Positions 33,720-52,279 of a stretch of DNA of 58,056 nt are shown piece after piece (the stretch's first letter is position 1; every line of letters begins with the position of its first letter). The stretch covers positions 1 to 58,056 of IMG/VR virus record IMGVR_UViG_3300030906_000642; one strand, written 5' to 3'. Position numbers and translations under genes: made by a program. A model generated the notes under the pieces. That model worked only from the letters and a program-made list of their open reading frames with translations, made no database searches and was not told the origin of the DNA. Origin of the DNA: a virus. Its lineage: Duplodnaviria > Caudoviricetes.

Positions 33720-34553
33720 ATGGCCAACCGCCTCCTCGCCTCGATCTCCGCGCTGGCTCTCCTCACGGCGACCCCGGCGTTGGCCCAGTCCGCCAGCGGC
33801 GGCCCACCCGCCACCTATGCCGACCAATACGGCCATCTTCAGACCGCCAGCGCCGCCCACGGCATCGGCCGCGAGAACGGCACGGGCGCGCAATGCCTGA
33901 TGGGCTATGACGTCACCTGCGCCCAGCCGGTCTATATCGAGGCCGGCGGCTCCCTTGGCGTCTCCAACCTCCCCGCCACGGTCGATACCAACACCGGCCC
34001 AGCGTCAGCGAGCACCTTGCGCACCGCCCCGGCGACCAATACGACCTCCGCGCCGGTCTCCCCCGCCATCACCGGCCCCACCAGCACCCTGACGCTGCCG
34101 TCGACCACCACGGCCTATGCCGCCGGCAACCTGATCGCCAACTCGGCCACGGCCGGGTCTGTCGTGGTTCCCAGCTTCAACGTCTCCAACGCCGCCGGCG
34201 GCGCGGCGATCGCGCGGTTGCGGCTGTCGACGAACGACAACACCTCGACCGCCTGGCCCGGCGTCGGCGTCCAGGTCGATCTCTGGCTTGCCGCCCCCAC
34301 CTTCACCAACGGCGATCGCGGCGCCTTCCTGCCGGCCACCGGCACAGCCAACCACCTCGGGTCCTTCACCTGCACGATGTCGGCGGAATATGGCGACGGG
34401 GCCTATGGGGAATGCTCGCCCTCGGTGGGCTCCTTCGCCCTGCCGAAGCTGGCCAGCGGGACCGCCATCTACTGGACGCTGCAGGCCACGACCGCCAGCG
34501 GCGTCACCGGCGCGTCCAAGGTGTGGACCCTGACCGCCGAGCTGTTGAACTGA
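33720..34553 (+). CDS. Signal-peptide-bearing beta-rich protein in the head module (possible spike base)
   Basis: MANRLLASISALALLTATPALA-Q signal peptide; two Cys pairs; Thr/Ala/Ser-rich. Confidence 0.7.
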   Translation: MANRLLASISALALLTATPALAQSASGGPPATYADQYGHLQTASAAHGIGRENGTGAQCLMGYDVTCAQPVYIEAGGSLGVSNLPATVDTNTGPASASTLRTAPATNTTSAPVSPAITGPTSTLTLPSTTTAYAAGNLIANSATAGSVVVPSFNVSNAAGGAAIARLRLSTNDNTSTAWPGVGVQVDLWLAAPTFTNGDRGAFLPATGTANHLGSFTCTMSAEYGDGAYGECSPSVGSFALPKLASGTAIYWTLQATTASGVTGASKVWTLTAELLN

Positions 34554-35827
34554 TGCGCTTCTTCGCCGCGCTTCTCTGCGTCATCGCCCTCACGCTGGGT
34601 CTGTCGGCCCCGGCGCATGCCGCCCCGCCGGCGGAAACCCTGCTGCTGCTCAGCGGCGGCAAGTGCGCCGGCGTCAGCCTGGATGTCGAGTTCGTCAAGG
34701 GCGGCGCCTGCCTCAACGGTCGCTACTACGGTTCGGCGACCCAGCTCCCCGGCTGGAGCTTCGCCCGCTCCTCGACCAAGACCGCGCTGGACGCCTCCGG
34801 GGTTCTGCACACCTTCACTTCGGGCGTCCCGGCGATCACCAACCTGGGACTGTCGGTCGAGCAGGCCGCCACCAACGGCGTATTGAGAAGCGGCGATCTT
34901 TCCAACGCGGCCTGGACCAGCATTTCCGCCACCGTCACCGGCAATGTCGGCGTCGCGCCGGACCTGACCACCACGGCGGCGCAGATCGTCTCCTCGGCCA
35001 CGAATGGCGGCCAGTACCAGAACGTCGCCAGCTTCGTTGCTTCGGGCAGCGCCTACACCAGCCAGGGCGACCTGAAGACGGTGTCGGGCGGCCCGAACCT
35101 GATCTTCTTCGCGGCCGCCTCCAGCGTCGGCGCCGGCAGCGTCGCCCCGACCGTCACGATCAACGGCTCGACCTGCGCTTTTGTCTCCGCTTCGGCGTCG
35201 GTCTCCTCCGAAACCGTCACCCAGCTGGCCAACGGCTGGTGCCACGTCACCGCGACCTTCACCGCCGCCGCGACAGCCACCACCACGGTCGCCGCTGGCG
35301 CGGTGAACAGCGGGACCACCTTCCAGGCCTGGGGGATGCAGACCGAGGGAGGCCCCTTCGCGACCTCCTACATCCCGACGACGTCAGCGCAAGCGGCGCG
35401 CGCGGCGGATGTGGCCTCCATCGGGACCCCAATCGGCGCGACCGGCTCGTTTTTGGGGTGGGCATATGGGCCGAATGACAGCACTGCGTCAGGCCCCCGC
35501 GTTGCCGGCTATCTAGCCGCGGCGTCGGCCTACGCCACCGCCTCGCCTACCAACGTAGCGATTTTCAACTCGTCTGTCGGAAATCTGAGTTTGACGGTCG
35601 CCACATCGCCAACGGCGTTGATGAAAATTGCCGCGTCGTGGTCCCCAACTGGGCGGTCGCTTTCGGTAAATGGCTTGGCCGCCGTGTCAGACAGCGCGGC
35701 GATGCCCGCATCGACGGGGGTCATCATCGGCAGCCAAAACACCGGCGGCCAGTTCCTCAACAGCTTCGTCCAGAAGCTGGTGTTCTACCCTACGCACCAG
35801 AACCCGCAGGCGCTGAGCAGCAAATGA
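34553..35827 (+). CDS. Head spike/fibre-like protein with signal peptide
   Basis: MRFFAALLCVIALTLGLSAPAHA-A; SFARSS..GLSVEQAATN and QTEGGPFATSYIPTT..RAAD motifs of phage head-fibre proteins; lectin-like C-terminus. Confidence 0.72.
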   Translation: MRFFAALLCVIALTLGLSAPAHAAPPAETLLLLSGGKCAGVSLDVEFVKGGACLNGRYYGSATQLPGWSFARSSTKTALDASGVLHTFTSGVPAITNLGLSVEQAATNGVLRSGDLSNAAWTSISATVTGNVGVAPDLTTTAAQIVSSATNGGQYQNVASFVASGSAYTSQGDLKTVSGGPNLIFFAAASSVGAGSVAPTVTINGSTCAFVSASASVSSETVTQLANGWCHVTATFTAAATATTTVAAGAVNSGTTFQAWGMQTEGGPFATSYIPTTSAQAARAADVASIGTPIGATGSFLGWAYGPNDSTASGPRVAGYLAAASAYATASPTNVAIFNSSVGNLSLTVATSPTALMKIAASWSPTGRSLSVNGLAAVSDSAAMPASTGVIIGSQNTGGQFLNSFVQKLVFYPTHQNPQALSSK

Positions 35828-36120
35828 TCCGCACCCTCGCCATCCTGTCCGCCCTCGCGCTACTCGCCGCCACGCCGGCCCAGGCCCAGACCATCAGCTG
35901 GTCCCCCGGCGTCGACTGCCAGGCCAACGCCCTGGGTGAAGACTGCATCATCACCCCAAGCCTGATGCAGCCAGCCTTCGCCGCCTATCAGGTCGCCCCG
36001 CCGCTCAACCGGGTCTGGTCCGGAGACGATCCCACGTCCCCCACCCTGACCGTCGAACTCCAGTTCCCCGACCTCGCCACCGCACAGAGCGTGCTGGCGG
36101 GGCTGTGGACGGCGAGCTGA
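35824..36120 (+). CDS. Small signal-peptide-bearing protein (fibre tip or partner)
   Basis: MIRTLAILSALALLAATPAQA-Q; one Cys pair; ATGA-coupled to the fibre gene. Confidence 0.68.
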   Translation: MIRTLAILSALALLAATPAQAQTISWSPGVDCQANALGEDCIITPSLMQPAFAAYQVAPPLNRVWSGDDPTSPTLTVELQFPDLATAQSVLAGLWTAS

Positions 36121-36138
36121 TCCGCCTAGGAGACCCTG

Positions 36139-37056
36139 ATGGGCTATTCCGTCGTCACCACGGTGCTCCAGGCCGCCGTCAGCACCCTGCTGACCGATCT
36201 GCCGACGGTGAAGGACGAACTGTCGATCAAGGCCGCCGACACCTCGAACGACGCATGGCTGACACGGGCGATCACCCAGGCGTCGCGGGCGATCGCCGTC
36301 TACACCAAGCGCAAGTTCGCCCCGGAGTATGTGCAGGACCTGTTCGACGTCGAGCAAGATCCCTATCCCTACCAGACCCCCGGCGGCTTCCCCCAGCTGG
36401 AGTTGACCCGCTGGCCCGTCCTGGCCGTGGTTGCCGTGGTCCAGACGCTGGCCCCGGCCAGCAGCCAGCGCCCCGCGACCACCCAGGCCCTTGTCCAGGA
36501 CCTGGACTTCCGGCTCGAGCCCGTCACCGGCCGCCTGCTGCGCCTGAACGCCTTCACCGGCGTGGCGACCCTTTGGGAGGCCATGCCGGTCACCGTTACC
36601 TACACCGCCGGGTTTGGGGCGCTAATCGAGGATACGGACACGGTTCCGGCCTCATCACCCTATCAGGTCACGGTGGCGGAAGCCGGCGCATTCTCCTGCG
36701 GCCAGTCGGTCAGCTACGCCTCCGGCGCGGCCCTGGCCCTGGTTGCCGCCAATCCTGATCAGGGCCAGTACAGCCTGGAGGCGGGCGCCTATAGCTTCAA
36801 CCCGGCGGACGCGGGCCAGCCGCTCGCCTTCGCCTACGCCACCTTCATCATCCCCGCCGACCTGACCGAAATCTGCCTGCGGCTGATCACCATGCGTTTC
36901 CGGGCGAGGGGGCGTGATCCGCTCCTGATGCAGCGGGAAAGCCAGCAGATCGGCGTCGAGCGTTTCTGGGTCGGCGGCTCGCCGGGCCAGACCGGGCAGT
37001 TCCCCGCCGATATCGAGGGCGCCCTGAACGAGTACCGGACGCCCACGCTGGCCTAG
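36139..37056 (+). CDS. Head-tail adaptor (gp6-like) with inserted beta domain
   Basis: LTDLPTVKDEL..ITQASRAIAVYTKRKF, VTYTAGF, IPADLTEICLRLI, LNEYR. Confidence 0.8.
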   Translation: MGYSVVTTVLQAAVSTLLTDLPTVKDELSIKAADTSNDAWLTRAITQASRAIAVYTKRKFAPEYVQDLFDVEQDPYPYQTPGGFPQLELTRWPVLAVVAVVQTLAPASSQRPATTQALVQDLDFRLEPVTGRLLRLNAFTGVATLWEAMPVTVTYTAGFGALIEDTDTVPASSPYQVTVAEAGAFSCGQSVSYASGAALALVAANPDQGQYSLEAGAYSFNPADAGQPLAFAYATFIIPADLTEICLRLITMRFRARGRDPLLMQRESQQIGVERFWVGGSPGQTGQFPADIEGALNEYRTPTLA

Positions 37057-37066
37057 GGGCAGACCT

Positions 37067-37573
37067 ATGGATTTCGTTCATTTTGACATCACCGGCGTGC
37101 GCCAGACCGGCATTCGTTTCGATGAGTTCCCGGACGCGCTTTACGAAGACCTGCGCGTCGAGGTCAACGCCCTGGCGATCGAGCTGTTCGGTCGGGTCGA
37201 GGCGGCGACCCCTGATCGCACCGGCCTGTTGCGCAGCCAGGAGCGGGTGCGGCTGTTCACCGATCCCAATCGGATCACCGGCTATGTCGATGTCGAGGGC
37301 GGCAAGGTTTCGGGCGGCCCCTACGCCAAGGCCGCCTCGCTGGAATACGGCGCCCACGCGTCGACCCAGGTCAAGGCCCACGCCATGGGCCTGGATCACC
37401 ACTGGGCGCTGAAACTGGCGTCGCCGGAGAGGGTGCTGGTCGAGGCCTACAACCGGACGCCAAACATCGCGGAAGTGGCGTTCGAACGCGGCCCGCTGGC
37501 GGTGATGCAGCCCGAAATCGCATCCCGCCTGAACGCCGTCGTCGCCAAGTCGACGGCGGAAGCCAACAGCTAG
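37067..37573 (+). CDS. HK97 gp10-like neck/tail-completion protein
   Basis: TPDRTGLLRS..LEYG motif; position after the adaptor. Confidence 0.7.
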   Translation: MDFVHFDITGVRQTGIRFDEFPDALYEDLRVEVNALAIELFGRVEAATPDRTGLLRSQERVRLFTDPNRITGYVDVEGGKVSGGPYAKAASLEYGAHASTQVKAHAMGLDHHWALKLASPERVLVEAYNRTPNIAEVAFERGPLAVMQPEIASRLNAVVAKSTAEANS

Positions 37574-37604
37574 AACGCTCAAGTCGCGCGGAGAGGAATG
37601 CTCT

Positions 37605-38243: not shown

Positions 38244-38255
38244 GGAGCGCCTCCC

Positions 38256-38510
38256 ATGTCCCACGCCGACACCGTCAACAACTGGTTCCGCGAGCGCCTG
38301 TCGGGCGGCCCGATCGCGCAGCACACCCCGGCCTATAACCAGCTGGTCGAGGCGCTGCCGGACCTGATCACCCGCCTTGAGGTCAAGCTTGCCGCCGCTG
38401 CCGATGATGCGAACCCGGTTCGCGCCGCGCCGGCCAAGGCCGCTAAGGCGCCCCCGGCGGGTGCGCCGGCCGCCCCGCTCGCCGGCGCCAAGCCCGACGC
38501 AGCCGCTTAA
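38256..38510 (+). CDS. Small hypothetical tail-region protein
   Basis: GAGGAG RBS; 84 aa. Confidence 0.6.
   Translation: MSHADTVNNWFRERLSGGPIAQHTPAYNQLVEALPDLITRLEVKLAAAADDANPVRAAPAKAAKAPPAGAPAAPLAGAKPDAAA
38409..38423. repeat. 15-bp palindrome copy 7
   Basis: GCGAACCCGGTTCGC, exact; read as ANPVR. Confidence 0.9.
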
Positions 38511-38558
38511 TCCCAATCTTCGCCCCACCCTCCCGCGCCAACAGGAAAGCCTTCTCCC

Positions 38559-39320: not shown

Positions 39321-39326
39321 GGCGCC

Positions 39327-39731
39327 ATGACCGAAGAAGAGCGCCGGGCGCTGGGCCAGACCCGGCGCCTGGTGTTTCAAAATCTGGCCAACGGCGTCCC
39401 GGCCGAACAGATTGGCGCGGACATGAAGCTGTCGCAGCTGGAGGTCGACCAGGCGCGCAGGTTTGTCGCCCGCAAGATCGGCGAACACCTGTTCCTGCGC
39501 CGCGCGGCCCCGATCGACTGCCATGATGTCCGCACCATCCGATACAACCGCCGTCCGCTGCTGAGCGTGCTGCGCAAGATCGGCAACCTCGACCTTTCCA
39601 CCGACCTGCTCCTCACCAAGCTCACCGTGCAGGCCATCGACCACCCCGAGATGGTCGAAGGCGCCAAGCACCGCATGGCCGACCATGCGAAGGCCAAGAC
39701 CAAGGATTATGAGAATGACCGGCCAGACTGA
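39327..39731 (+). CDS. Hypothetical protein (possible HTH)
   Basis: 134 aa; GVPAEQIGADMKLSQLEV. Confidence 0.55.
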   Translation: MTEEERRALGQTRRLVFQNLANGVPAEQIGADMKLSQLEVDQARRFVARKIGEHLFLRRAAPIDCHDVRTIRYNRRPLLSVLRKIGNLDLSTDLLLTKLTVQAIDHPEMVEGAKHRMADHAKAKTKDYENDRPD

Positions 39732-40179
39732 ACCTGTGGCGATCGAGCCCGGCACGCCCGCCGTGCGCCTGGCCGGCAAGCTCTGGCCCATCCCGGAACT
39801 GGCCTGGCGCGATCTGAAGAAGTGTCGCTCGGCCTTGCTTGCGCTGACCGACCAGATCAATGACGTCATCGCCGCCGCGAAAGACACCTCCGGCGAAGAC
39901 GACGACGTCCGCGCCCAACGCAATCTGGCCGCCGTGTCGCTGGTGTTCCAGGCCCTCGCTGACGATGATTTCGACCGCCTGGTGGTCGGCCCGATCCATG
40001 CCGGCTTGCAGGCCGCCCACCCGACCCTGTCCCGCGAGGAGTTTGACGGCTGGTCGTTCAGCGAGGCCGAGCTGCAGCTGGCGTGGCTCACCGTGCGCGG
40101 CCAGTCCGGCCTGTTTGTGCTCCGCGCCCCCGGCTCTGATGGCAACGCCTTGTCGGGGGAAGTGGCCGGGGTAGCCTAG
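39715..40179 (+). CDS. Tail assembly chaperone (lambda G-like)
   Basis: Lies before the tape measure gene; ends in slippery GGGGGAA at 40155..40161. Confidence 0.75.
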   Translation: MTGQTEPVAIEPGTPAVRLAGKLWPIPELAWRDLKKCRSALLALTDQINDVIAAAKDTSGEDDDVRAQRNLAAVSLVFQALADDDFDRLVVGPIHAGLQAAHPTLSREEFDGWSFSEAELQLAWLTVRGQSGLFVLRAPGSDGNALSGEVAGVA

Positions 40180-40457: not shown

Positions 40458-40529
40458 CGCGCTCACCCCGCGCCTGGAGCCCCGCGCCCAAGCAGCGCGC
40501 GGCGCGATAGCGCCCTCAAGGATCATCCG

Positions 40530-43436
40530 ATGACCAACAATATCGCGGTCTCGATCACCGCCGACGTCGCCGATCTGACCGCCAAGCGGGCCATCGCCTC
40601 CACCGAACTGAAGGCGCTGCAGAAGGATCTGAACGACCTCGCCAAGACCGCCAGGGATGGCGGCATGACCGACGAGCTGAAGGCCAGGATGTTGGCCCTT
40701 GGCGACGGGGTGGCCAAGGCCAAGAGCCAGGTCAGCCAGATCGATACGCAGCTGAAGACCTTCGGCCGGACCGCCAATGAGACCGGGGCAGCGGTGGGCG
40801 GCCTGCACGCCGGCACGGCCGGCGTCACCCGTGAACTGCTGGTGATGGGCCGCGAGGCCAGCCGGGGCAACCTCAACCGCCTGGCCGGCTCGGCGACCAT
40901 TCTCGCCGGGCGGCTGGGCCTGCTGACCCCGCAGATCCTGATGGTGGTTGGCGGGGTTCTGGCCCTGGCCGCGCCGGTCGTCTTGGTCGCCGCCGCGATG
41001 GAGTCCGCCGCCAACGACGCCGCCAAATACCAGGGCGCCCTGTCGGCCACCGCCAACTACGCCGGCCTCACCGCCGCCAGCTATCGTGACATGACCAGCG
41101 CGCTGGCCGTCTCCTCGCATATCGGCTTGGGGGAGGCCCGCAAGGAGCTGCTGGACCTAATCAACACCGGCAAGTTCAGCGGCGCGGAGATGCTGCTGAT
41201 CGGCAAAGACTCCAACGCCATGTCGGAGATGACCGGCGAGTCCGCGGACAAGATGTTGTCCGAGTTCGAGAAGATGGGCGACGATGTCGCCAAGTTCGCC
41301 CGGGAGTATCAGGACCACTATCACCAGCTGACCACGGCCCAGTTCGAACACATCGAGGCCTTGCAGAAGGCCGGTGATGTCGAAGGCGCGCAGATGGCCT
41401 TCCTGCAGGCGGTCTACGGCTACCTCGGCAATCAGGCGCCGCGCCAGGTCGGGGCGCTGAAGAGCGCCTGGGACGATCTGACCATCGCGATTGGCGGGGC
41501 CGTGGACGCCGAGAAAAACTATGTTGCCGGTCAGGGCGACACGGCCGCCACACAGATCGCCAAGTCCAAGGCGGCCCTGTCCGAACTCTATGGCGAGAAG
41601 CTGCGTCAGCAGCACGGGGATGACGTCGGCATCTCGCCGGGGCTGCTGGATGAGCGCATCGCCGGCGGCGAGAAAATGCTGGCCTCGCAGCAGGCCTTGG
41701 CCGCCGCCACGGCCAAGACGGCCCAGGACGAGCGCGACAAGGCCAAGGCCCAGACCGAGGGCGTCGATGCGGCGGCCAAGCTGAACGAACAGTTCGAGGC
41801 GTCCAAGACCTCCGGCGAAAAGCTGAAGAAGACCCTGGCGGACATCAACCTGGAGCTGGCGCGCGCAACCGCGGCCGATCCGGGGAACAAGGCCCTCTAC
41901 GAGCAGGAAGCCGCCGCCGCGCGGTCTCAGGCGGTCAAGTCCGATACGCCCCATGCGGCCAAACCGAAGAATGACGAGGTGCAGGTCTGGCAGGAGGAGC
42001 TGCAAACCAAACTCGAGGACGAAAAGGCCTATTTCGGAGACTCCAAGGCGGAGGAACAGAAGTTCTGGACTGACAAGCTGGCCCTGACCACGGCCGGCTC
42101 GTCCCAGCAGCGGGCGGTGAAGACCAAGCTCTATGACCTCGATCGCGACCTGGCGCGGCAGGCCTATGCCGACCAGCTCGCCAGCCTGAACGATCGACTT
42201 GAGGCCGACCGGGGCAACTGGTCGAAACAGCAGGCCGAGTGGGCGACCAAGCTGGCCTTCATCAAGGCCAGTTACGGCGCGCAGAGCAGCGAATACACGA
42301 ACGCCCAGCGCGAGGAGGAGGCCGCCGAGCGCGAGCATCGCTCGACCATGGCGCAGATCCAGCGCGACGCTGAGGCGACCAGCGTGGAGCAGCTGAAAAG
42401 CACGCTTGCCGCCAACAAGACCATCCGCGATGAGGACGCCAGGACCCAGGAGGCTGTAACCCGCGCCAAGGGTTCCGGTTCACCGGTCGGGGAAATCCAG
42501 GCGGCTGTCCAGATCGCCGCCCAAGCGAGGGCGGCCCGCGCCGCCGACCTTGCCGACACCGCGACCACCTACCAAGCCGAGAATGCGCTGCTTCAAGCGG
42601 CGGTGGCCAGGGCCACGGTCAGCTACGGCACGGACTCCAAACAGTACGCCGACGCCCTGAAGGCCAAGCAGGAGGCGGATCAGGCCTATTACGACAAGCG
42701 CCGGGTCATGGAGGATCAGGCGACCCAGCAGTCGATCCGCGACGCGCAGGACATCCAGCAGAAATGGATGGGGATCACCCAGCCGATCGGTTCGGCCATG
42801 AGCGGGATGTTCCAGGGCATGGCCCTGCACCAGCAGACCTTCTCCCAGGCCGCTCTGAAGGCCGGCGACCAGCTGCTGTTCAAGTTCATCGACGTTGAGG
42901 TCCAGGACCTGGAGAAATGGACCGCGACCCAGCTGGCCAAGACGGGCCTGATCAAGACCCAGTCCACCATGCAGGGCCTGGCCCAGGCGGCGGCGGCCAG
43001 CAATACGGCGGTCACCCAGAAGGCGGCCGACCTTGCGGCGGTCACCGGTTACGCCGGTGTCGCCGCCGCCGCGACTTTCGCGGCCTATTCACCCGAGGCC
43101 GCCGCTGATCCGGCGCTGCCCGGCGAAATGGCGGCGGCGGCCTACGGCCAAGCCATGTCGATGGGTTCGTTTGCCAAGGGCATCGACGTCGTCCCGCGGA
43201 ACATGATCGCCCAAATTCACGCTGGCGAACGGATCATGCCGGCGGCCGACAACAGCGCCATCATGGACGCGGTCGGCGCTGGCAAGGGCGGCGGAAGGGG
43301 TGGCGCATCGGTTAACAACACCTTCAACAACAACTTTCACGGCGTCTCCCACGATCCGCATGAGTTGGTCAGCGCGATGATGCCGCTGATCATGGAACGG
43401 TTCGAGAAGATGAAGCGGCGGGGCATGCTCGGATGA
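40530..43436 (+). CDS. Tape measure protein
   Basis: 968 aa, Ala-rich helical; C-terminal FAKG..VPRNMIAQIHAGERIMPA motif. Confidence 0.92.
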   Translation: MTNNIAVSITADVADLTAKRAIASTELKALQKDLNDLAKTARDGGMTDELKARMLALGDGVAKAKSQVSQIDTQLKTFGRTANETGAAVGGLHAGTAGVTRELLVMGREASRGNLNRLAGSATILAGRLGLLTPQILMVVGGVLALAAPVVLVAAAMESAANDAAKYQGALSATANYAGLTAASYRDMTSALAVSSHIGLGEARKELLDLINTGKFSGAEMLLIGKDSNAMSEMTGESADKMLSEFEKMGDDVAKFAREYQDHYHQLTTAQFEHIEALQKAGDVEGAQMAFLQAVYGYLGNQAPRQVGALKSAWDDLTIAIGGAVDAEKNYVAGQGDTAATQIAKSKAALSELYGEKLRQQHGDDVGISPGLLDERIAGGEKMLASQQALAAATAKTAQDERDKAKAQTEGVDAAAKLNEQFEASKTSGEKLKKTLADINLELARATAADPGNKALYEQEAAAARSQAVKSDTPHAAKPKNDEVQVWQEELQTKLEDEKAYFGDSKAEEQKFWTDKLALTTAGSSQQRAVKTKLYDLDRDLARQAYADQLASLNDRLEADRGNWSKQQAEWATKLAFIKASYGAQSSEYTNAQREEEAAEREHRSTMAQIQRDAEATSVEQLKSTLAANKTIRDEDARTQEAVTRAKGSGSPVGEIQAAVQIAAQARAARAADLADTATTYQAENALLQAAVARATVSYGTDSKQYADALKAKQEADQAYYDKRRVMEDQATQQSIRDAQDIQQKWMGITQPIGSAMSGMFQGMALHQQTFSQAALKAGDQLLFKFIDVEVQDLEKWTATQLAKTGLIKTQSTMQGLAQAAAASNTAVTQKAADLAAVTGYAGVAAAATFAAYSPEAAADPALPGEMAAAAYGQAMSMGSFAKGIDVVPRNMIAQIHAGERIMPAADNSAIMDAVGAGKGGGRGGASVNNTFNNNFHGVSHDPHELVSAMMPLIMERFEKMKRRGMLG

Positions 43437-44107: not shown

Positions 44108-44110
44108 GCC

Positions 44111-45019
44111 ATGGCCGCCCTGCTGCGCGCCACCGCCAACGGCCTGCTCGCGGACGCCCTGGCGGCGGGGACGGTTCGTGCCCGCGCCGACCTGTTCACC
44201 TTCACCCTGCTCGACGGGACCATCCTCAACTGGACCAGCTGGGACCAGCCGGTGGTGTTCGCGGGCGTCACCTATTCCCCAGGCGCGCCGGCCGACGGGT
44301 CGCAGACGCCGTGGATCGAACGGACCACTTGGAACGTCTCCAACACCATGGAGATACCGGAGATGACGGTGCTTCTCCGGGCCCTGAACGCCGGCTTCAA
44401 CGGCGGCGCCAATATCAAGACCCAGGTCCATAACGGCCTGTTCGACGGCGCGACCTTCCTGCTGTCTGAAGCCTATATGGTCGCCCCGCCGGTTATCCTC
44501 GACACCGTCCCCCTGTTCGGCGGCAAGATCGCCGGGATCGACCTGACCGCCACCACGGCCACCATCGACGTGCGCGGCAAGATCAACGACCTGGACCAGT
44601 ACGCCCCGCACAACCTCTATCAGATCGGCTGCAACCACGGCTTCTGCGATCCCGGCTGCACCCTCAGCAGCGCGGCGTTCACGGCGGATTTCACGGTCGG
44701 CTCATCCGGCCTGACCTCGTCCTTCCTGCCCTGGCCGGCCACGCCGCCGACGAACGCCAGCACCTACCAGAACGGCCAGATCACCATGTCCAGCGGCGCG
44801 GCCTCGGGCCAGACCCGCACCGTCGGCTTGGCCAACAGTGCTGGCCTCACATTGACCTATCCGCTGTATCAGACCCCCGCGCCGGGGGATGGTTTCTCCG
44901 CTTTCCGGGGTTGCAGCAAAGCGAAGATGGACGACTCCGGCCAGGGCTGCACCGACTACGACAACGTCCAGCACTATAAGGGCTATCCCGACGTGCCGCC
45001 GCCGAACGCGGCCTACTGA
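44111..45019 (+). CDS. Baseplate hub, DUF2163-like (GTA g13-type)
   Basis: ADLFTFTLLDG, GLFDGA, CNHGFCDPGC, GCSK..C..YKGYPDVP. Confidence 0.85.
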   Translation: MAALLRATANGLLADALAAGTVRARADLFTFTLLDGTILNWTSWDQPVVFAGVTYSPGAPADGSQTPWIERTTWNVSNTMEIPEMTVLLRALNAGFNGGANIKTQVHNGLFDGATFLLSEAYMVAPPVILDTVPLFGGKIAGIDLTATTATIDVRGKINDLDQYAPHNLYQIGCNHGFCDPGCTLSSAAFTADFTVGSSGLTSSFLPWPATPPTNASTYQNGQITMSSGAASGQTRTVGLANSAGLTLTYPLYQTPAPGDGFSAFRGCSKAKMDDSGQGCTDYDNVQHYKGYPDVPPPNAAY

Positions 45020-45608: not shown

Positions 45609-45611
45609 CCC

Positions 45612-48284
45612 TTGTCCCTGTTCGCCGGCAACCAGAGCCCCACCAACGCGCCGATCAACTACACCGGGCTGAACGTCGGCTCGTCGCAGTGGAACGCGCC
45701 TGTCCCGATCTTCTGGGGCATGCGGCGGCTGTCCACCAACGCCGCCTGGTTCGGCAACTTCTCCGCCAAGTCGGAAGGCGGCAAGGGCAAGGGCGGCGGC
45801 GGCAAGGGCGACCAGCAAAAGACCTACACCGCCTCGGTGGTGCTGGGCCTGTGCGAGGGGCCCCTCGACGCCACCGATCCGGTCGGCAACATCTGGGCCA
45901 ACGGCTCGACCACCACCACCACCACCCTGTCGGCCATGAATATGGTCCTGGCCCTCGGTACGACCGAACAGGCGCCCTGGAACTATCTGGTCGACAATTA
46001 CCCCGACGCGGCCCTGGCCTATTCCCAGCTGGCCTACCTGGGCGCCATCAACCTCGGCCTGGGGGAAAGCGCGACGATCCCGGACAACGGGTTCGAGTGC
46101 AAGCGAACCCTGGACTTCGCCTTTGTGAACTCCACCCACGCCAGCGGCTGGATCAACCCCAACTCGCACACCCAGTCGCTGGGCGTCGACTGCCTGATGA
46201 GCGACATCATCCCCGACCTGCTGACCAATGTTCAGTACGGGATGAGCTTCAACGCCGGCGACCTGGGCGACATGACCCAGTACGCCACCTATCAGCGGGC
46301 GCAGGGGATATTCTTCTCGCCGCTACTGAACAGCCAGGAGAAGTGTACCGAGATCCTCGATCGCTGGGCCATGCTGTCCAATGCATGGATCTATTGGGCC
46401 GGGACCGCGATCAATTTCGTGCCCCTGGGCGACAGTGTCGTCACCGGCAATGGCGTCACCTATACCCCCGATGTCGATGTCGCCTATGACCTGGACTACG
46501 ACGACTTCCTGCCCGGCAGCGGCAAGGACGACGGCCCGGTCAAGGTCACCCGCATCGACCCGGCGGACGCCCACAACCGCACCGCCCTGGATTTCACCGA
46601 CCGCACCCTGGCCTACATCGATAACCCGGTCGAATGGAAGGATGACGGCCTTGTCGATCAGTATGGGCTGAGGGACAATTCCAGCACCGAGGCGGACGAA
46701 ATCTGCGACCCGGCGGTGGCCAAGGTCGTGGTGCAGTTGCTGGGCAAGCGCAACGCCTACATCCGCAACACCTACACCTTCAAGACCAGCTGGCGCTTCA
46801 TCCTCTGCGTGCCCGGCACAATCCTAACGCTGACCGAGCCGAATATCGGTCTCGATCATGTCCGGGTGCGGGTTCAGAAGGTTAGCGGCGACGAAAAGGG
46901 CCAGCTCAGCTTCATCTGCGAGGAATTCCCCGGCAACGTCGGCACCTATTATCCGGCGGTGGCGGCCGCGGCGATCACCGCCCCGACCACGCCGATCCTC
47001 AACATCCCGCCCGGCAATGTGAACACGCCGGCGATCATCGAGCCGGACTCATCCTTCACCGCCGGCACCCCCCAGATCATCATCGCCGCATCCGGCGGCG
47101 TCGCCTGGGGCGGCTGCACGGTCAACATCAGCTTCGACGGGGTCAACTACAGTCAGATCGGCGTGATCAACGCCTCAGCCAAACAGGGCCTGCTGACATC
47201 CGCCCTGGCGGCCTATGGCGGGGACAATCCGGACACGGCCGACACCCTGGCCGTGGACTGCACCGAAAGCCTGACCCTGCCAACGCCGGTCAGCAACGAC
47301 GACGCCACGGCCCTGCGGACCCTGTCTCTGGTGGCGGCCCAGCCGACCCTGGTGGGCGACGCCTACGAGGTTCCGAACAATGGCGAGCTGCTGGCGTTCG
47401 GATCGGTCACCTCCACGGCCACCTATGCCGCCAACCTGACCTATCTGCAGCGCGGCGCCTACGGCACCGCGCCGGGCGCGCACGGCGTCGGCGACCAGTT
47501 CACCCTGCTGGACGTCACCGGCACGGACGGGACCTCGGTGGCTTACGATCTGCCGGCCCAGTACATCGGCCAAGTCCTGTATCTGAAACTGGCCTCGTTC
47601 AACGTCTTCGGCCAGGCGTCGCAGGATCTCTCCACCGTCGCGGAATACCAGTACACGCCGACGGGCGCGGGCTTTGGCGGCGGCACGGTCGGCGCGCCGC
47701 TGGAGCCTACCGGATTCGGGCTGCTGGGATCGCCGGGCGCCACCAGCGTGCCGCTGGCCTGGACCGCCAACCAGAGCAGCGACAATGTCACCCGCTACAC
47801 GGTGTGGCGGGCGCCCGGCGCCAGCGCGGCCTTCAGCTCGGCCTCGGAGATCTGGTCGGGGCTGGCCCTGGCCTATACCGACGGCGCGGTGGCGGCCAAC
47901 ACCGCCTATACCTACTTCCTGACCGCCAACAATTCGGTCGGTGGCTCGCCCAACACCGCCGGGGTGAACGCCACCACGAGCGCGTCCATGACCGGCTCGA
48001 CGACTCTCGTCACGGCCGCCTCGTCTCCGCTCAGCCTGGGCGTCGCCCCGGGCCTGACCTGGTACGTCGATGTCAACAACACCGCCGGCGCGCCGTTGCA
48101 GATCAACCTGCCGACCGGAGCCCCGGTGGTCGGCCAGCGGATCGTCATCACCGACGCTGGCGGGAACGCCACCACCAACGCCTTCACTATCAAGGCGGGG
48201 GCCACGACGATCGACACCGTCAATATCAGCAACGGCTGGTCCGTGGTGCGCTGGAACGGGTCGGCCTGGCTGAGGAGCGCGTGA
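45612..48284 (+). CDS. Central tail-tip / host-specificity protein with FN3-like domain
   Basis: TTG start; PVPIFWG, GKGGGGK, GLCEGP, LQRGAYGT, LYLKLASFN, FN3-like LAWTA..YTVWR..YTYFLTA. Confidence 0.85.
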   Translation: MSLFAGNQSPTNAPINYTGLNVGSSQWNAPVPIFWGMRRLSTNAAWFGNFSAKSEGGKGKGGGGKGDQQKTYTASVVLGLCEGPLDATDPVGNIWANGSTTTTTTLSAMNMVLALGTTEQAPWNYLVDNYPDAALAYSQLAYLGAINLGLGESATIPDNGFECKRTLDFAFVNSTHASGWINPNSHTQSLGVDCLMSDIIPDLLTNVQYGMSFNAGDLGDMTQYATYQRAQGIFFSPLLNSQEKCTEILDRWAMLSNAWIYWAGTAINFVPLGDSVVTGNGVTYTPDVDVAYDLDYDDFLPGSGKDDGPVKVTRIDPADAHNRTALDFTDRTLAYIDNPVEWKDDGLVDQYGLRDNSSTEADEICDPAVAKVVVQLLGKRNAYIRNTYTFKTSWRFILCVPGTILTLTEPNIGLDHVRVRVQKVSGDEKGQLSFICEEFPGNVGTYYPAVAAAAITAPTTPILNIPPGNVNTPAIIEPDSSFTAGTPQIIIAASGGVAWGGCTVNISFDGVNYSQIGVINASAKQGLLTSALAAYGGDNPDTADTLAVDCTESLTLPTPVSNDDATALRTLSLVAAQPTLVGDAYEVPNNGELLAFGSVTSTATYAANLTYLQRGAYGTAPGAHGVGDQFTLLDVTGTDGTSVAYDLPAQYIGQVLYLKLASFNVFGQASQDLSTVAEYQYTPTGAGFGGGTVGAPLEPTGFGLLGSPGATSVPLAWTANQSSDNVTRYTVWRAPGASAAFSSASEIWSGLALAYTDGAVAANTAYTYFLTANNSVGGSPNTAGVNATTSASMTGSTTLVTAASSPLSLGVAPGLTWYVDVNNTAGAPLQINLPTGAPVVGQRIVITDAGGNATTNAFTIKAGATTIDTVNISNGWSVVRWNGSAWLRSA

Positions 48285-48289
48285 CGCGC

Positions 48290-49186
48290 ATGGAACACCC
48301 GATGATGCGAACCCGGTTCGTTTTGGCGGTGCTGCTGTGCGCCGCCTCATGCCACACCGTGCCCGCTTACGCCGGCCAGGTCCCGACCCCGGTCAATGCA
48401 CCAGCTTCCGTAACCGCCGGCGACGCGCTAAGCGCCACGTCCAATCCGCAGCAGGCGGCGGACAGCGGTGTCAGCCTGAGCGCTGCGGGGCAGAACAAGG
48501 TCCTTGCCGGCCCATCTTCCGGCGGCGCGGGCGCGGCAGCCTTCCGCGCCCTGACCAACGCGGACATGCCGTCCACCGGCCCCGGCGCCGGCTCGGTCAG
48601 CAGCGTGGGTCTGACCGCGCCGGTGGAGTTCACCGTCAGCGGCGCCCCGGTCACCGCCGCCGGCACCCTGGCGATCGCCAAGGCCACCCAGTCCGCCAAC
48701 AGCATCTGGGCTGGCCCATCTTCCGGCTCCGCCGCGCAACCCGGGTTCCGGGCGCTGGTCTCCGCCGACATGCCGGCCACGGGCGCCGGCAGCGGGACGG
48801 TCATGAATGTCGGCCTGACCAGCTCGTCGACCGCTTTCAGCATCACCGGCTCGCCGGTCACCAGTTCGGGAACCATCACCCTGGGGGTAGCGACCCAGAG
48901 CTCAAACCAGGTGTGGGCGGGTCCGACCTCCGGCTCGCCACTGCGGCCGGCCTTTCGCGCGCTGGTGGCGGCCGATATCCCGTCGCTGGCGACGCTCTAT
49001 GCACCCAGCGCCGTCACCACGGCGACCACGGTCGCGGGGTTGCCCGCGCCTTCCTTGGCGGCCCGTGGCTTCGTCACAGATTCGACCCTGCCGCTCACCG
49101 GAACCAATCTCGGCGCCGCGGTCGTGGGTGGCGGCGCGAACAAGGTCCCCGTCTATTCCGACGCGACCGCCTGGTACATCGGCTGA
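48290..49186 (+). CDS. Fibre-repeat protein with signal peptide
   Basis: MMRTRFVLAVLLCAASCHTVPAYA; three AGP(S/T)SG..FRAL..AD(M/I)P repeats; C-terminal GGGANKVPVYSD..W.IG; exact start uncertain (48281/48290/48302). Confidence 0.72.
   Translation: MEHPMMRTRFVLAVLLCAASCHTVPAYAGQVPTPVNAPASVTAGDALSATSNPQQAADSGVSLSAAGQNKVLAGPSSGGAGAAAFRALTNADMPSTGPGAGSVSSVGLTAPVEFTVSGAPVTAAGTLAIAKATQSANSIWAGPSSGSAAQPGFRALVSADMPATGAGSGTVMNVGLTSSSTAFSITGSPVTSSGTITLGVATQSSNQVWAGPTSGSPLRPAFRALVAADIPSLATLYAPSAVTTATTVAGLPAPSLAARGFVTDSTLPLTGTNLGAAVVGGGANKVPVYSDATAWYIG
48307..48321. repeat. 15-bp palindrome copy 8 (one mismatch: GCGAACCCGGTTCGT)
   Basis: 14/15 match at the start of the fibre gene; read as RTRF. Confidence 0.8.
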
Positions 49187-49196
49187 GGACACTGCC

Positions 49197-50021
49197 ATGA
49201 TCCTGATGATCGCTCCCGCCTCGGGGATGACGTTCGGCGCCATGCCCTCAGGCGCCAGCTACGTCTCCGACCCCTTCGCCCTGGTGCGAATTTTCAACGA
49301 CTCCAGCGCCGACCAGACCGCCCTTGAGGGCGCGGGGTGTTTCACCCTGACGCCCTTCGGCAACTGGGGGAACGCCGGCTTCGTCACCCTGGCGGACCTG
49401 TACGCCGCCGACACCGGGTCGATTCTGCCGGGGATCACCGGCTATCCGATCCACACCGTCGCCACGGTCTTCACCGACCCGACCCTGGCCAACTGCGGCA
49501 CCTGGGCCAAGACCACGACGGGCAATGGCTCCGGCGCCTGGACCCAGGTTTCCACCGAAACCCTGGCCTCGATCGCCACGACCGCAGGCGCCGCCGCGAC
49601 CAGCGCCGCGACCGCCGCGACGACGGCCTCCGCCGCCGCGGCCGCGGCTGGAACATCGGCCGCCACGGCGTCAGGGGCCGCCACCACGGCGACCACGGAA
49701 GCTGGCATAGCGACGACCGCCGCCGGCTCAGCCTCGGCGTCAGCAACCGCGGCCGCCAACGCCGCCGCCGCCGGAACCGGCGGCCAGGTGTTCACGACCC
49801 ACGCCGCCTTTGCCGCCGCGCTGAGTGGTCTCGGGAACGCCAATTATCAGGTGATCGCGGACGAAACCCACGGCGGCGACTGGACCATCTATTCGGTCGC
49901 CAGCCATGCCGCGACCTTCCTGATCGACCTGTCGCCCGGCGGCATGTCGGAGCCCCAGCTGACCTCGCTGTTCAACGCCATGCAGGCCGCCGGCCTGTTC
50001 GCGAACTTCCAAGGGATCTAG
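49197..50021 (+). CDS. Tail-fibre-like protein with Ala/Thr/Ser-rich stalk
   Basis: GAGGA RBS; long AATSAATAATTASAAA region; no clear signal peptide. Confidence 0.65.
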   Translation: MILMIAPASGMTFGAMPSGASYVSDPFALVRIFNDSSADQTALEGAGCFTLTPFGNWGNAGFVTLADLYAADTGSILPGITGYPIHTVATVFTDPTLANCGTWAKTTTGNGSGAWTQVSTETLASIATTAGAAATSAATAATTASAAAAAAGTSAATASGAATTATTEAGIATTAAGSASASATAAANAAAAGTGGQVFTTHAAFAAALSGLGNANYQVIADETHGGDWTIYSVASHAATFLIDLSPGGMSEPQLTSLFNAMQAAGLFANFQGI

Positions 50022-50026
50022 CCCCC

Positions 50027-52279
50027 ATGACCTTTAAGACCGCGCTGGCGGCTTCGGCCGCCCTGATGGTGCTTGCCTGCGCGTCCGCGTCGATGGCGCA
50101 GACAACCACCAACGCCCTGCCGGCCAACGCCGCGCCGCTGCCCACCGACGTGGTTTCCTGTCAGCCGGCGGCGGCGGGGACCACGCCCGGCACCGCCAAA
50201 AAATGCACCCTGGCCCAGGTCGTCTCCGCGACCCCGCCGAGCGCGATGGCCACGGCTTTGCGTCCGCAGAACACCCCGTGGAACGCCAACAATGGCATGA
50301 CCAATTTCGGCGACAGCGTCACGGCCGGTTTCGGCACGACCGTTTTTCCCACCAACGGCTATGCCAACCTGATGGCCGTCGACTTCGTCAATGGGGTCGG
50401 TAAATTCAACAACCTGGGCGTCTCCGGTGACGACGCCGCCGACGTCGCAACCTCGATGTTCACCAACCTGAACCCGACAGATTCCGGCAATCCGATCGTC
50501 ACCGTCATGGACGGGATCAACGACCGGACCAATGACCCGAACAAGCAGGTGGTTTTCCAGCAAATCCTTGGCTCAGGCATCGTCCGCGCGGCGATCTCCA
50601 ACACCAACACCGTGGCGGCGGCCGCGGCCCTGGTGACGGCGGCGGGGGCTTGGTCATCCGACACGACCTTCGCAAATCTGACCGGCGAGACGTCGACCAC
50701 GAACGGTTCGACGCTCACGCTGACGAGCGCTAACTTTCCGGGAGGCGTCTTCTACCTCTACTACCGGATCAACAACAGAGGCGGCACGACCACAGGCGGC
50801 AGTTTCACGGTGTCGGTGGACGGGACTGTCGTCGCCGACACCGTCTCCGGCGCCTCGCCGATCACGACGTTGCCTTTCGGCGGCGCGACCTACCCAAGCA
50901 TTGCGGCGCTTCCAACGGCTCCGGCGCTCGCGCGATTTCCGGTTGCCAGCGGTATCCATACGGTCGTGGTGACGGTGACGTCTCCAACCCTATCAACCAA
51001 CCCGGTCCAAATTCTAGGGTTCGCCATCCCCAACGGCCAGATCGGCGGCCAGAGCGCCCCTCGCGTCGCCGTCGGCGGCACCATCTTTCAGCAGAATGGC
51101 GCCCAGGAGAATTTGCAGGCGCCGATGAACGTCCTGAACCAACAGATGGCGGCCCAATTCGCCGCCGACGGCCTGGACGTTCGCTTCGCCAATGTAAGAG
51201 CCTACATCAATTCCACGACCGACATGGCGTCGGTGGCGACCCAGAATTGCCCCGCCAGCACCGCGCCAGGACTGCACCCCAACGACTGCGGCCATCGGCA
51301 CCTGGCCCAGGCCTTCGAGGACACGATCGCCGCCACCAGCGCTCCGCTCACCCAGCCGCTCAACCTGTCTGGCCTTCCCGTGCCGGCGACGCAAGACTTG
51401 GCGAATGGTCAGACCGTGGACGATGGCACCCACCTGGCTGCCGGCGGCCACTGCGTTTCGACTTTCCTCGGCTATTGCTGGGGCGAGACGATGCTCTTGG
51501 CGGGCGGGCGCTACACCAATATCCTAATGGCCGGCAACACCAGCTCGATGGGCTTCGGCTTCAGCTTTGCCCCTGCGCATCCGACGACGGCTCAGGTCCT
51601 TGCCGGGCTCGCCTACAAGTTCAGCGAGGACAACAGCATGCAGTGGGGCACGGCGGGAGCCGGCGTCACGGCTAATGAGCAATTGCAGCTGGCGCTTGCC
51701 GCCCCCCCGACGTCCCTGTCCGGCTATCATGAGGTGCGCGGTAGCGGCACAAGTTCTTCGGGCCTGATCGGTGGCCTGGATATCGGCGACAGCGGCGTCT
51801 TTGGCGGCATTCACTGGCTGTTCGATACAACCCACAGCGCCTTCGCCTTTGGCGTCTACGCGCCGAACAATGAGAATATCTGCAGCTTTTTCTACCCGTC
51901 CGGAACGACGCCCACCGCCGCGTCGAACTTCACCTGCCCGGACTACGTGACGCCGACGGGGGATCGTGACAGCAATTCATTCACGGCCGCGACGGCTTTC
52001 ATCGCTGGCGGCAGCGCGCCGGCCGGATCAGGATCCTGCTCGATTGGGACCCAGACCGGCGGCAACACCGTGGGCTTCTTCAAGACGCCCAGCGCCTGTT
52101 CGGCGACCACGGCGACCCTGACCTTCAGCAAGACGGCGCCCACCGGCTATGTCTGTCACGTCACCGACATGACCTCGGCCGCCATCGCCCCGCAAACGTC
52201 TTCGTCCCTAACATCCTGCACCGTGAAAATCACCAGCGGCGCGAACGACAATTTCGCCTTCAGCGCGATGGCCGGTTGA
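50027..52279 (+). CDS. Signal-peptide-bearing SGNH/GDSL esterase with Cys-rich beta C-terminus
   Basis: MTFKTALAASAALMVLACASASMA-Q; blocks FGDSVT, NLGVSG, GIND and GLHPND.GH; 12 Cys in the mature part. Confidence 0.82.
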   Translation: MTFKTALAASAALMVLACASASMAQTTTNALPANAAPLPTDVVSCQPAAAGTTPGTAKKCTLAQVVSATPPSAMATALRPQNTPWNANNGMTNFGDSVTAGFGTTVFPTNGYANLMAVDFVNGVGKFNNLGVSGDDAADVATSMFTNLNPTDSGNPIVTVMDGINDRTNDPNKQVVFQQILGSGIVRAAISNTNTVAAAAALVTAAGAWSSDTTFANLTGETSTTNGSTLTLTSANFPGGVFYLYYRINNRGGTTTGGSFTVSVDGTVVADTVSGASPITTLPFGGATYPSIAALPTAPALARFPVASGIHTVVVTVTSPTLSTNPVQILGFAIPNGQIGGQSAPRVAVGGTIFQQNGAQENLQAPMNVLNQQMAAQFAADGLDVRFANVRAYINSTTDMASVATQNCPASTAPGLHPNDCGHRHLAQAFEDTIAATSAPLTQPLNLSGLPVPATQDLANGQTVDDGTHLAAGGHCVSTFLGYCWGETMLLAGGRYTNILMAGNTSSMGFGFSFAPAHPTTAQVLAGLAYKFSEDNSMQWGTAGAGVTANEQLQLALAAPPTSLSGYHEVRGSGTSSSGLIGGLDIGDSGVFGGIHWLFDTTHSAFAFGVYAPNNENICSFFYPSGTTPTAASNFTCPDYVTPTGDRDSNSFTAATAFIAGGSAPAGSGSCSIGTQTGGNTVGFFKTPSACSATTATLTFSKTAPTGYVCHVTDMTSAAIAPQTSSSLTSCTVKITSGANDNFAFSAMAG

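Follow-up and report, generated by a model that had tools for sequence, protein, structure and literature searches.

Five genes in the late operon of a prophage appear to encode exported proteins of the spike, fibre and esterase type. The prophage lies in a stretch of 58,056 nucleotides (nt) from a virus of the Duplodnaviria (Caudoviricetes), positions 1 to 58,056 of the IMG/VR virus record IMGVR_UViG_3300030906_000642, and this whole stretch is referred to below as the window. The proteins, which we call SP1 to SP5 (Table 1), can be described as a knobbed short fibre (SP1), a head-spike-fibre lectin (SP2), a small partner (SP3), a repeat fibre (SP4) and a fibre-like sugar esterase (SP5). It is very likely that they are exported through the Sec translocon and cleaved by signal peptidase I, and we regard oxidative folding of the exported proteins as probable. 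The interpretation that we prefer, with a probability of about 0.4, is that these exported appendages join the phage particles after the holin lesion.

An earlier interpretation made from the sequence alone, referred to as the original prediction, had described signal peptidase I-type N-termini on the open reading frames (ORFs) that start at 33720, 34553, 35824, 48290 and 50027 (SP1 to SP5, respectively), and we read all five exactly as claimed. With the predicted cleavage site marked by a slash, the SP1 leader is MANRLLASISALALLTATPALA/Q, and the other leaders end in LSAPAHA/A (SP2), ATPAQA/Q (SP3), TVPAYA/G (SP4) and ASASMA/Q (SP5). All five are composed of a basic n-region, a core of 10-13 residues and an A-x-A end. 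Signals were called with a crude home-made rule (K or R, a hydrophobic 10-mer without charge, and small residues in positions -3 and -1), and all signal calls given here rest on this rule and on reading by eye. The rule was positive for 5/5 SP proteins, whereas none of the 23 other late proteins of the window was called. When a very permissive version (any start codon, first half of the ORF) was run on relatives, 12 of 160 ORFs were positive; four of these had real-looking N-terminal signals by eye, one of the four being a spanin-type lipoprotein. None of the five leaders contains a twin-arginine (RR) motif. The SP5 leader also fits a lipobox (VLA/C18), and a Cys at this place was found in none of the seven signal-bearing homologues. 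Cys17 and Cys21 of SP4 fit no lipobox and are absent from its relatives.

The G+C content at third codon positions, followed frame by frame, switches into the frame of each SP gene at the proposed start. The possibility raised in the original prediction, that the true starts lie downstream of the leaders, was not borne out, as the later candidate starts all lose the coding signal. Public gene calls match for SP2 (424 amino acids, aa; P0006) and SP5 (750 aa; P0093), the call for SP4 (P0226) comprises 301 aa from a GTG at 48281, three codons upstream, and the ESM Atlas contains SP1 and SP3 letter for letter. When the homologues were inspected for signals, as the original prediction had advised, these were found to be kept in the SP1, SP4-like and SP5 families, but the relatives of SP2 mostly lack them. 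These results support the view that the signals are real family features and did not arise by chance.

The numbers of cysteines in the mature proteins (4, 4, 2, 0 and 12 in SP1 to SP5) are those stated in the original prediction, and the local pairing that it had pointed out was also evident, each consecutive mature pair being 8-22 residues apart. Under random placement such pairing has a probability of P = 0.033 in SP1, 0.033 in SP2, 0.22 in SP3 and 0.0002 in SP5; in seven signal-less proteins of the window with even Cys counts the gaps range from 10 to 283. The pairs are formed by residues 59/67 (stalk) and 218/232 (knob, conserved) in SP1, 38/53 and 208/230 in SP2 and 32/41 in SP3. SP5 has six neighbouring pairs, and the mature part of SP4 has no Cys. 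In the alignment of SP1 relatives (n=31), Cys218 is invariant and Cys232 nearly so in the signal-bearing relatives, whereas the pair is missing in 5/5 signal-less relatives with the SP1 domain. Each of the four mature Cys columns of SP2 is occupied in one of the 35 aligned family members. Moreover, the Cys count is even in eight of the nine signal-bearing partners encoded next to SP1-like genes (see below). Co-variation of the signals with the cysteine pairs is thus supported at the level of sequence. The odd partner (L035, 3371-4090) has a twin-arginine-like leader, LRRRFIGG, and a single Cys, and some of these partners may use the twin-arginine translocation pathway instead of Sec.

SP2 matched the NCBIfam model NF048003 (GTA_spike_fiber, 'phage head spike fiber domain') with 101.3 bits against a cut-off of 36, over profile positions 2-182 of 182 and SP2 residues 102-285, and it also matched phrog_5939. 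The SP2 family profile, built from 35 relatives, matched the fibre Rcc01080 of the Rhodobacter capsulatus gene transfer agent (RcGTA; PDB 6TB9, 6tb9_F3) with an E-value of 1.1e-69, as well as baseplate proteins of the Pseudomonas phages Pa193 and E217 and a gp17 tail fibre. The structural model of SP2 is a tandem beta-sandwich with a mean predicted local distance difference test (pLDDT) value of 76, and it is closest to the Pa193/E217 baseplate proteins, laminin LG pairs and carbohydrate-binding modules. By these matches SP2 is a homologue of the RcGTA head-spike fibre Rcc01080, and its gene sits between the capsid and adaptor genes. Both the leader and the cysteines of SP2 are rare among its relatives and therefore arrived together in its lineage, as gains of its own. 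After the predicted cut, SP2 begins with APPAETLLLLSGG, a Leu run that is also present in L042 and altogether in only two of eight signal-bearing partners. A scan of viral contigs with the single SP2 protein revealed no relatives, and tblastn against 50,697 phage records gave one weak match. The searches with SP3 found no family and no relatives, the best Atlas score being 0.78.

SP1 is built of a 22-aa signal, a low-complexity stalk and a knob at residues ~115-277, which is confidently modelled as a jelly roll with pLDDT values of 80-90. It has 251 homologues at E-values up to 1e-3. The 120 listed ones have in common a domain of ~165 aa at the C-terminus, with 60-80% identity, and a signal was called in 101 of them, several of the remainder being fragments. 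The leaders are kept across these homologues without conservation of their sequence, and many members of the family consist of the signal and the knob alone. The nearest ESM Atlas clusters are 86-100% viral and have no Pfam family. SP1 had no tblastn match in the 50,697 phage records, and in 401 sampled genomes of the class to which G001, an alphaproteobacterial (Caulobacteraceae) metagenome-assembled genome (MAG), belongs, its domain went undetected apart from one match at E 8.9e-4. SP1 thus appears to found a previously unnamed, virus-only family without a Pfam entry. The search of the PDB with its fold retrieved jelly rolls without specificity (best Foldseek E 2.3e-3; best Z 6.7), and on this basis we name no family. 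The closest predicted viral structures in BFVD (best E 1.5e-7) are knobs at the ends of collagen-like fibres, Gordonia minor tail proteins and a protein of a Caulobacter phage. The sole PDB sequence match of the SP1 profile, 8f6q_A (E 9e-4), was disregarded because it covers 50 residues.

The SP1 profile detected 24 loci in viral contigs, one of them cut by the contig end and four pairs being near-duplicates (L032/L033, L042/L043, L050/L051 and L052/L053). By eye, 16 of the 23 loci with a readable N-terminus carry a signal. The seven signal-less ones are the distant ones (35-41% identity), and the four of these whose neighbours were examined lie after a capsid gene in podovirus-like modules. 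The contexts come from short metagenomic contigs with our own rough gene calls. The modules that hold SP1-like genes differ widely: some of these genes follow the capsid gene or tail fibres, some lie in the gap separating portal from protease, and others stand among genes of the baseplate wedge or adjoin a terminase or endolysin gene. Of 15 viral loci examined, 8 have a second signal-bearing gene immediately behind the SP1-like one, usually with overlapping stop and start codons, and so we consider these genes to be a mobile 'exported' cassette inside structural modules. The partner in L034 is a relative of SP2 (phrog_5939), and three or four signal genes stand in a row in L030, L034 and L036.

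The repeat of SP4 gave 8252 matches and is present in annotated tail fibres of phiRSL1, Motura and cyanophages; SP4 also matches phrog_9625. The caller was positive for 21 of the best 150 SP4 matches. All the near full-length relatives (P0350, P0353, P0291 and the genes in L058 and L065) keep the signal and the mature N-terminus, GQVP.P(V/I)NAPAS, and the signal with its cleavage site is retained in 4/4 syntenic SP4-like genes, in which the cleavage region A-x-A/G-x-V-P-x-P-x-N-A is the most conserved stretch. The front of these genes is conserved and the end variable. In L057, L058 and L065 the gene order is the same as in the window: the tail-tip gene, a signal-bearing fibre with a GQVPNP N-terminus, and a fibre starting with MILM. 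The other 12 loci from the SP4 search of viral contigs matched the repeats or a short piece only and were not examined. An alignment of the tail-tip protein extends through its last ~100 aa only in L057, L058 and L065, all of which have an SP4-like gene, whereas in the related genomes G001-G005, which lack such a gene, it stops at about residue 800 or earlier. In G001-G005 the fibre either forms one chain with the tail-tip protein or is a protein of its own without a signal. In L022 (190-6657), from the Caulobacteraceae MAG G001, the tail tip is fused to a long repetitive fibre in an open frame of 2155 aa; the tail-tip protein of the window ends at 890 aa. The MILM protein of the window (49197-50021) has an N-terminal part of ~120 aa that is conserved after the tail-tip gene in relatives, and its C-terminus varies. 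A complex prediction with three copies each of tail-tip residues 780-890 and SP4 residues 29-110 gave a score of 0.02 against a mark of 0.32, which counts neither way.

SP5 scored 37.8 bits against PF13472 (gathering cut-off 32.9), with the SGNH/GDSL domain at residues ~90-430. Block I, FGDSVTAG, is present, and G95, D96 and S97 are nearly invariant in 11 relatives. In the putative block V region, HPNDCGH, the residues H417, P418, G422 and H423 are invariant. By eye, seven of ten SP5 homologues carry a signal, one looks truncated and two are without; the three viral loci found with the family profile are all signal-bearing and encode proteins of 758 to 1920 aa. No relatives were detected with the single protein in viral contigs or by tblastn in the 50,697 phage records. 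Two relatives contain collagen repeats (PF01391), and one ends in what we take, from its sequence, to be a self-cleaving chaperone-type domain as in tailspikes. No virion-attachment domain was recognised in SP5. SP5 could also be a peptidoglycan de-O-acetylase that aids the lysozyme; however, its relatives look like fibres. Thus, the fibre, adhesin or enzyme identity that the original prediction had given to these proteins finds support in the Rcc01080 homology of SP2, the repeats of SP4 and the collagen-type relatives of SP5.

The original prediction had also noted that the genes are tightly packed in the late operon, and this is what we observed. SP1 begins 2 nt past the upstream stop, and the stop and start codons of SP1/SP2 and SP2/SP3 overlap. 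There were no promoter-like sites around either cluster in a scan limited to the sigma-70-type consensus, and no plus-strand terminator-like sites at the cluster borders. Because of these overlaps and the lack of such sites, the five genes are expected to be transcribed with the late operon.

We compared the window with 12 related prophages that were found via the capsid protein. Their hosts are MAGs named Caulobacteraceae, Rhizomicrobium, Sphingomonadales, Rhodopila, Rhodospirillales and unclassified (Alpha)proteobacteria, and Acetobacter oeni. In L001 and L003 a single small ORF, which has no signal, separates the 97-aa gene from the adaptor; SP1-SP3 therefore represent a 2.4-kb insertion in a variable slot. 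As the closest relatives are without all five genes, SP1-SP5 are accessory. In L007, whose capsid protein is the most similar one (71% identity), the slot holds another signal-bearing protein that the N-terminal part of SP1 resembles (38% over 66 aa, E 0.007); the knob differs. The capsid-to-adaptor slot also contains glycosyltransferase-like genes (phrog_14945) in L002 (10194-11033), L004 (8211-9689) and L027 (4841-6322, the same as L032 3841-5322), with a radical-SAM-like gene beside it in L032 (2361-3863), a hint that head proteins or a host polymer might be glycosylated. Further signal-bearing proteins are encoded in L001 between the tail chaperone genes and the tape measure (13519-13899, 126 aa) and, larger ones, after the fibres of the Rhizomicrobium prophage L025 (3810-6668 and 7348-8208); BLAST revealed no kinship of these to SP1-SP5.

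The head spike of RcGTA is described as a pentameric jelly-roll base, Rcc01079, with one fibre, Rcc01080, that binds the capsule (PMC7296036, PMC10218006; PDB 6TB9/6TBA). SP2 and Rcc01080 are both lectin-like proteins of two beta-sandwich domains, in both systems the fibre gene stands among head genes directly after the gene of a jelly-roll protein, and both are accessory add-ons, as are the RcGTA spikes and the tailspike of the gene transfer agent in the published descriptions (PMC7296036; PMC10218006, Alim et al. 2023; preprint 10.64898/2026.07.19.739414). However, the descriptions of the RcGTA spike proteins in PMC7296036 and PMC10218006 give them no secretion signal, whereas SP2 has a Sec-type leader, and the two Cys pairs of SP2 occur in no other aligned relative. 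SP5 resembles the SGNH-type esterases and depolymerases of tailspikes and fibres in its GDS block, in its position after tail fibre genes and in its relatives with collagen repeats and a chaperone-like, fibre-type C-terminal end, but SP5 and most of its relatives carry a signal, and SP5 has six Cys pairs. The prophage carbohydrate esterase vb_24B_21 of phage phi24B (PDB 6yp6) appeared only as a weak match.

Signal-bearing proteins encoded in tail regions have precedents of another kind. Cor of phages phi80 and N15 carries a signal and is encoded among tail genes. Likewise, lambda Lom (PMC12309495) and T5 Llp (PMC9586334) are described as products of signal-bearing genes beside receptor-binding tail genes that work in the envelope. 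One of these proteins is an outer-membrane barrel and the others are small lipoproteins, none of them related to fibres, whereas here the proteins are homologues of fibres, lectins and esterases whose genes are joined to structural genes by translational coupling. The expression of Lom- and Llp-type genes is separate from that of the late operon. Genes whose function is not known and that have signal peptidase I-type signals and Gln at +1 (the 'Q rule') have been reported in Porphyromonas gingivalis phages (Matrishin et al. 2023, PMC10367356), and SP1, SP3 and SP5 also expose Gln at +1. However, that study reads these genes as host-envelope modifiers and mentions no appendage homology (PMC10367356), and Porphyromonas belongs to the Bacteroidota, whereas the host here is an alphaproteobacterium.

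We propose the following route. The five proteins would be made from the late operon alongside the virion proteins and sent through the Sec translocon, signal peptidase I would remove the leader, and a host periplasmic oxidase would close the neighbouring Cys pairs, which would give disulfide-stabilised proteins of the extracellular type. Meanwhile, the particles would assemble in the cytoplasm as usual. The holin would then open the inner membrane, so that the cytoplasm and periplasm would become one compartment still enclosed by the outer membrane. In this merged compartment the mature SP1 and SP2, with SP3, would dock on the head as spikes and the mature SP4 and SP5 at the tail tip as side fibres, and the spanins would release everything last. 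Since the lysozyme has neither a signal nor a SAR-like (signal-arrest-release) N-terminus, a hole-forming holin would be needed, and this would merge the compartments before the spanins act. Addition of appendages to finished particles is itself familiar: T4 Hoc and Soc, Dec of phage L and the T4 fibres attach in vitro to particles that are already complete. The RcGTA tailspike TspA, which is detachable, can, as presented in its preprint, be added after capsid and tail assembly (10.64898/2026.07.19.739414), as the proposed route needs. However, Hoc/Soc, Dec, the T4 fibres and TspA are cytoplasmic proteins without a signal, and the preprint on TspA (10.64898/2026.07.19.739414) contains none of the terms 'signal peptide', 'secret' or 'periplasm'.

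Docking of the exported proteins on particles, taken as a step, has in our estimate a somewhat less than even chance. It is favoured because SP2, encoded in the head module, is a homologue of a virion spike fibre of solved structure, because SP1 and SP4 show the build of attached fibres, with a conserved front and a swappable end, and because SP4 co-occurs with the end domain of the tail-tip protein. The original prediction had proposed that the proteins are exported, oxidatively folded and attached to particles; this is supported in part, as the export signals and Cys pairs agree with its first two steps, and the joining of particles would follow as a hypothetical third. Several observations weigh against docking. 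No tailed phage is known to add exported proteins to its particles, and we found no publication that describes Sec signals on tailed-phage homologues of head spikes or tail fibres (supplementary files were not covered). All five genes are accessory: L001 and L003 have intact head modules without SP1-SP3, and SP4 and SP5 are absent from all five related genomes G001-G005, whose tail modules are otherwise present. Phages whose capsid, portal and baseplate genes are unrelated have SP1 knobs that are 60-80% identical, and the family members that consist of signal and knob would have little left to dock with. Among the SP2 homologues, 80 of 86 were signal-negative by the caller, and by eye a canonical signal was seen in one only (P0035). 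In addition, the RcGTA fibre is held by its extreme N-terminus (residues 2-10, I-A-L-G-L-G-L-G-L; PMC7296036, Bardy et al. 2020), and the same position in SP2 is the leader. SP1 has no detectable likeness to the RcGTA spike base: there was no sequence match with Rcc01079, which was also not among the 50 listed structural matches, although the latter does not exclude likeness. In a somewhat less probable, wider form of the preferred interpretation, the five proteins could belong to a two-compartment assembly line of tailed phages, in which heads and tails are built in the cytoplasm and a mobile, disulfide-bonded set of exported spikes, fibres and an esterase is snapped onto finished particles between the holin lesion and the rupture of the outer membrane, with SP1 and its partner as a portable 'periplasm-matured spike' module of sipho-, myo- and podoviruses in soil and peat bacteria.

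Almost as likely as the preferred interpretation is the alternative that the original prediction had itself offered, soluble helpers or action on the cell surface. The proteins could be exported but never attached, and act as appendage-derived soluble lectins and an esterase, periplasmic or released, on the envelope or on surface polysaccharide; this we hold to be a real, if doubtful, possibility. On the dying cell and its debris they could cover up or break down the receptor that the phage itself uses; they could also make capsule or biofilm looser for the progeny, or prevent superinfection, and the signal would give them disulfides and/or early access to the envelope. All the evidence for export applies equally to such free proteins. 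Their genes are accessory and missing in the closest relatives, and the cassette of SP1 and its partner moves among sipho-, myo- and podovirus-type modules, at module edges by terminase, endolysin and tail-fibre genes. The strong conservation of the SP1 knob whatever the capsid type is as expected for a host target, SP2 is without the N-terminal anchor position of its virion homologue, and Lom, Llp and the Porphyromonas phage genes discussed above provide precedents. However, separate transcription is not indicated, given the lack of promoter- and terminator-like sites, and lysis sets cytoplasmic proteins free in any case, which leaves the signal in need of another explanation. The lineage-specific fronts and swappable ends (SP1 versus the L007 protein; the SP4 family) and the co-occurrence of SP4 with the tail-tip C-terminus look like docking architecture, and PADLOC matched no family for six proteins at E-values up to 0.01.

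The proteins could alternatively be expressed from the prophage and serve in lysogenic conversion as envelope adhesins, receptor modifiers or exclusion factors, like classical morons. The element is integrated, with an integrase and a tRNA-Cys at its ends, and the genes are insertions relative to the closest kin, which agrees with the absence from relatives that is characteristic of morons. SP5-like genes adjoin an integrase in L056, and signal-bearing giant proteins with the SP4 repeat, of up to 5474 aa, occur outside the phage-sized range. We nevertheless find this explanation unlikely, as stop and start codons overlap with those of structural genes, the promoter and terminator of a moron were not seen in the sigma-70-type scan, and the five proteins have no beta-barrel, no lipobox shared by homologues and no outer-membrane anchor. 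Least of all do we favour leaders that stay uncleaved, as structural anchors or as SAR-type tethers released at lysis, with the proteins remaining on the cytoplasmic side. Residues 2-10 of the RcGTA fibre, as described in PMC7296036, are hydrophobic and bind the base pentamer, and the SP2 leader contains A-L-T-L-G-L. This is very improbable, however, in view of the tripartite build common to all five leaders, the retention of signal properties across families in which the sequence is not retained, and the co-variation of signals with Cys pairs. Moreover, the cores of the five leaders are too short and too hydrophobic for SAR domains.

Table 1. Coordinates of the five signal-bearing genes and of the other features of the window.
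Feature	Positions	Strand	Remarks
Host nitronate monooxygenase gene	1-975		
Integrase	1316-2581	-	One prophage end
DNA methyltransferase-domain protein	5553-7754	-	Large, early region
DNA methyltransferase-domain protein	16935-19607	+	Large, early region
Large terminase	25704-27566	+	
Portal	27922-29451	+	
S78 protease	30062-31282	+	
HK97-type major capsid protein	31380-32861	+	
146-aa conserved protein	32960-33400	+	Small gene after capsid
97-aa conserved protein	33424-33717	+	Directly upstream of SP1
SP1, 277 aa	33720..34553	+	Signal 22 aa, stalk, C-terminal jelly-roll knob
SP2, 424 aa	34553..35827	+	Signal 23 aa, tandem beta-sandwich lectin-like body
SP3, 98 aa	35824..36120	+	Signal 21 aa, mature protein 77 aa
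Head-tail adaptor (phrog_442)	36139-37056	+	Starts 18 nt after SP3
Overlapping ORFs, tail assembly chaperone position	39327-39731 and 39685-40179		
Tape measure	40530-43436	+	Among tail genes
gp84-N/BR0599 hub protein	44111-45019		
Tail-tip protein, 890 aa (Phage-tail_3/Rcc01698-like)	45612-48284	+	
SP4, 298 aa	48290..49186	+	Signal 28 aa, three tail-fibre repeats, C-terminal knob
Signal-less fibre-like protein, 274 aa, starts MILM	49197-50021	+	Between SP4 and SP5
SP5, 750 aa	50027..52279	+	Signal 24 aa, SGNH/GDSL esterase, Cys-rich C-terminal part
76-aa protein with one transmembrane segment, holin candidate	within 52328-53007	+	Adjoins SP5
T4-type lysozyme	52555-53007	+	No hydrophobic N-terminus
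PLD-like protein	54203-54961		Below Pfam cut-off
Lipid-desaturase-domain membrane protein	55138-55707		114.8 bits
Rz-like inner-membrane spanin candidate, N-terminal transmembrane segment	55704-56321	+	Read by eye
101-aa protein, C-terminal transmembrane segment	56359-56664		
tRNA-Cys	57260-57333	-	Other prophage end
Host PCMT-type methyltransferase gene	from 57484, to 58056		

The window has a G+C content of ~67% and represents an integrated prophage with host genes on both flanks. The DNA was found in 18 sequencing runs, all of them peat metagenomes, with no RNA run listed. The integrase is followed by two DNA methylases and a primase and then by the long plus-strand late operon. The tail-tip gene set comprises DUF2460, gp84-N/BR0599, NlpC/P60 and Phage-tail_3/Rcc01698-like proteins. 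The phage was labelled lambdoid in the original prediction, for which we found no support; its gene content is instead that of a siphovirus-type prophage that combines an HK97-type head with an RcGTA-type tail tip.

The two methyltransferase domains are of the C5 and the N6/N4 type, and the protein encoded at 16935-19607 has its domain fused to an N-terminal sequence of ~530 aa of no known identity. The 146-aa protein after the capsid gave no meaningful PDB sequence match. The overlapping ORFs upstream of the tape measure may be a programmed frameshift pair. The gp84-N/BR0599 hub protein has a Cys cluster (174, 179 and 183) together with Cys268 and Cys280, maybe a metal or iron-sulfur site. 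The PLD-like and lipid-desaturase genes sit between the lysozyme and the spanin candidate; they are cargo-like and might change the lipids of the host membrane. The lysis genes of the spanin region are separated from the lysozyme by ~2.7 kb of other genes. The Rz-like candidate had no family match, but its gene embeds a proline-rich lipoprotein ORF (in the frame of 55825-56232; lipobox LALC/A), an Rz1-like architecture. A role of SP1-SP3 as a replacement of spanins or lysis proteins was considered and rejected, as this Rz-like gene with its embedded lipoprotein ORF exists.

By the textbook account, tailed phages are assembled entirely in the cytoplasm, and phage proteins that are exported count as factors of lysis or exclusion. 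Here, in contrast, a homologue of a virion part with a solved structure and further fibre-type proteins carry conserved secretion signals and disulfide signatures, and most members of the previously unnamed, apparently virus-only SP1 family are signal-bearing. If the exported proteins join the particles, this would be a new assembly route by which phages could use disulfide-stabilised adhesins of the extracellular type, and it would bear on the prediction of host range, virion proteomics and phage engineering. If the proteins stay free, they would represent secreted lectins and enzymes of appendage origin, a widespread class that phages release with their progeny. In both cases the signal is overlooked when annotation pipelines give such genes the label 'tail protein'.

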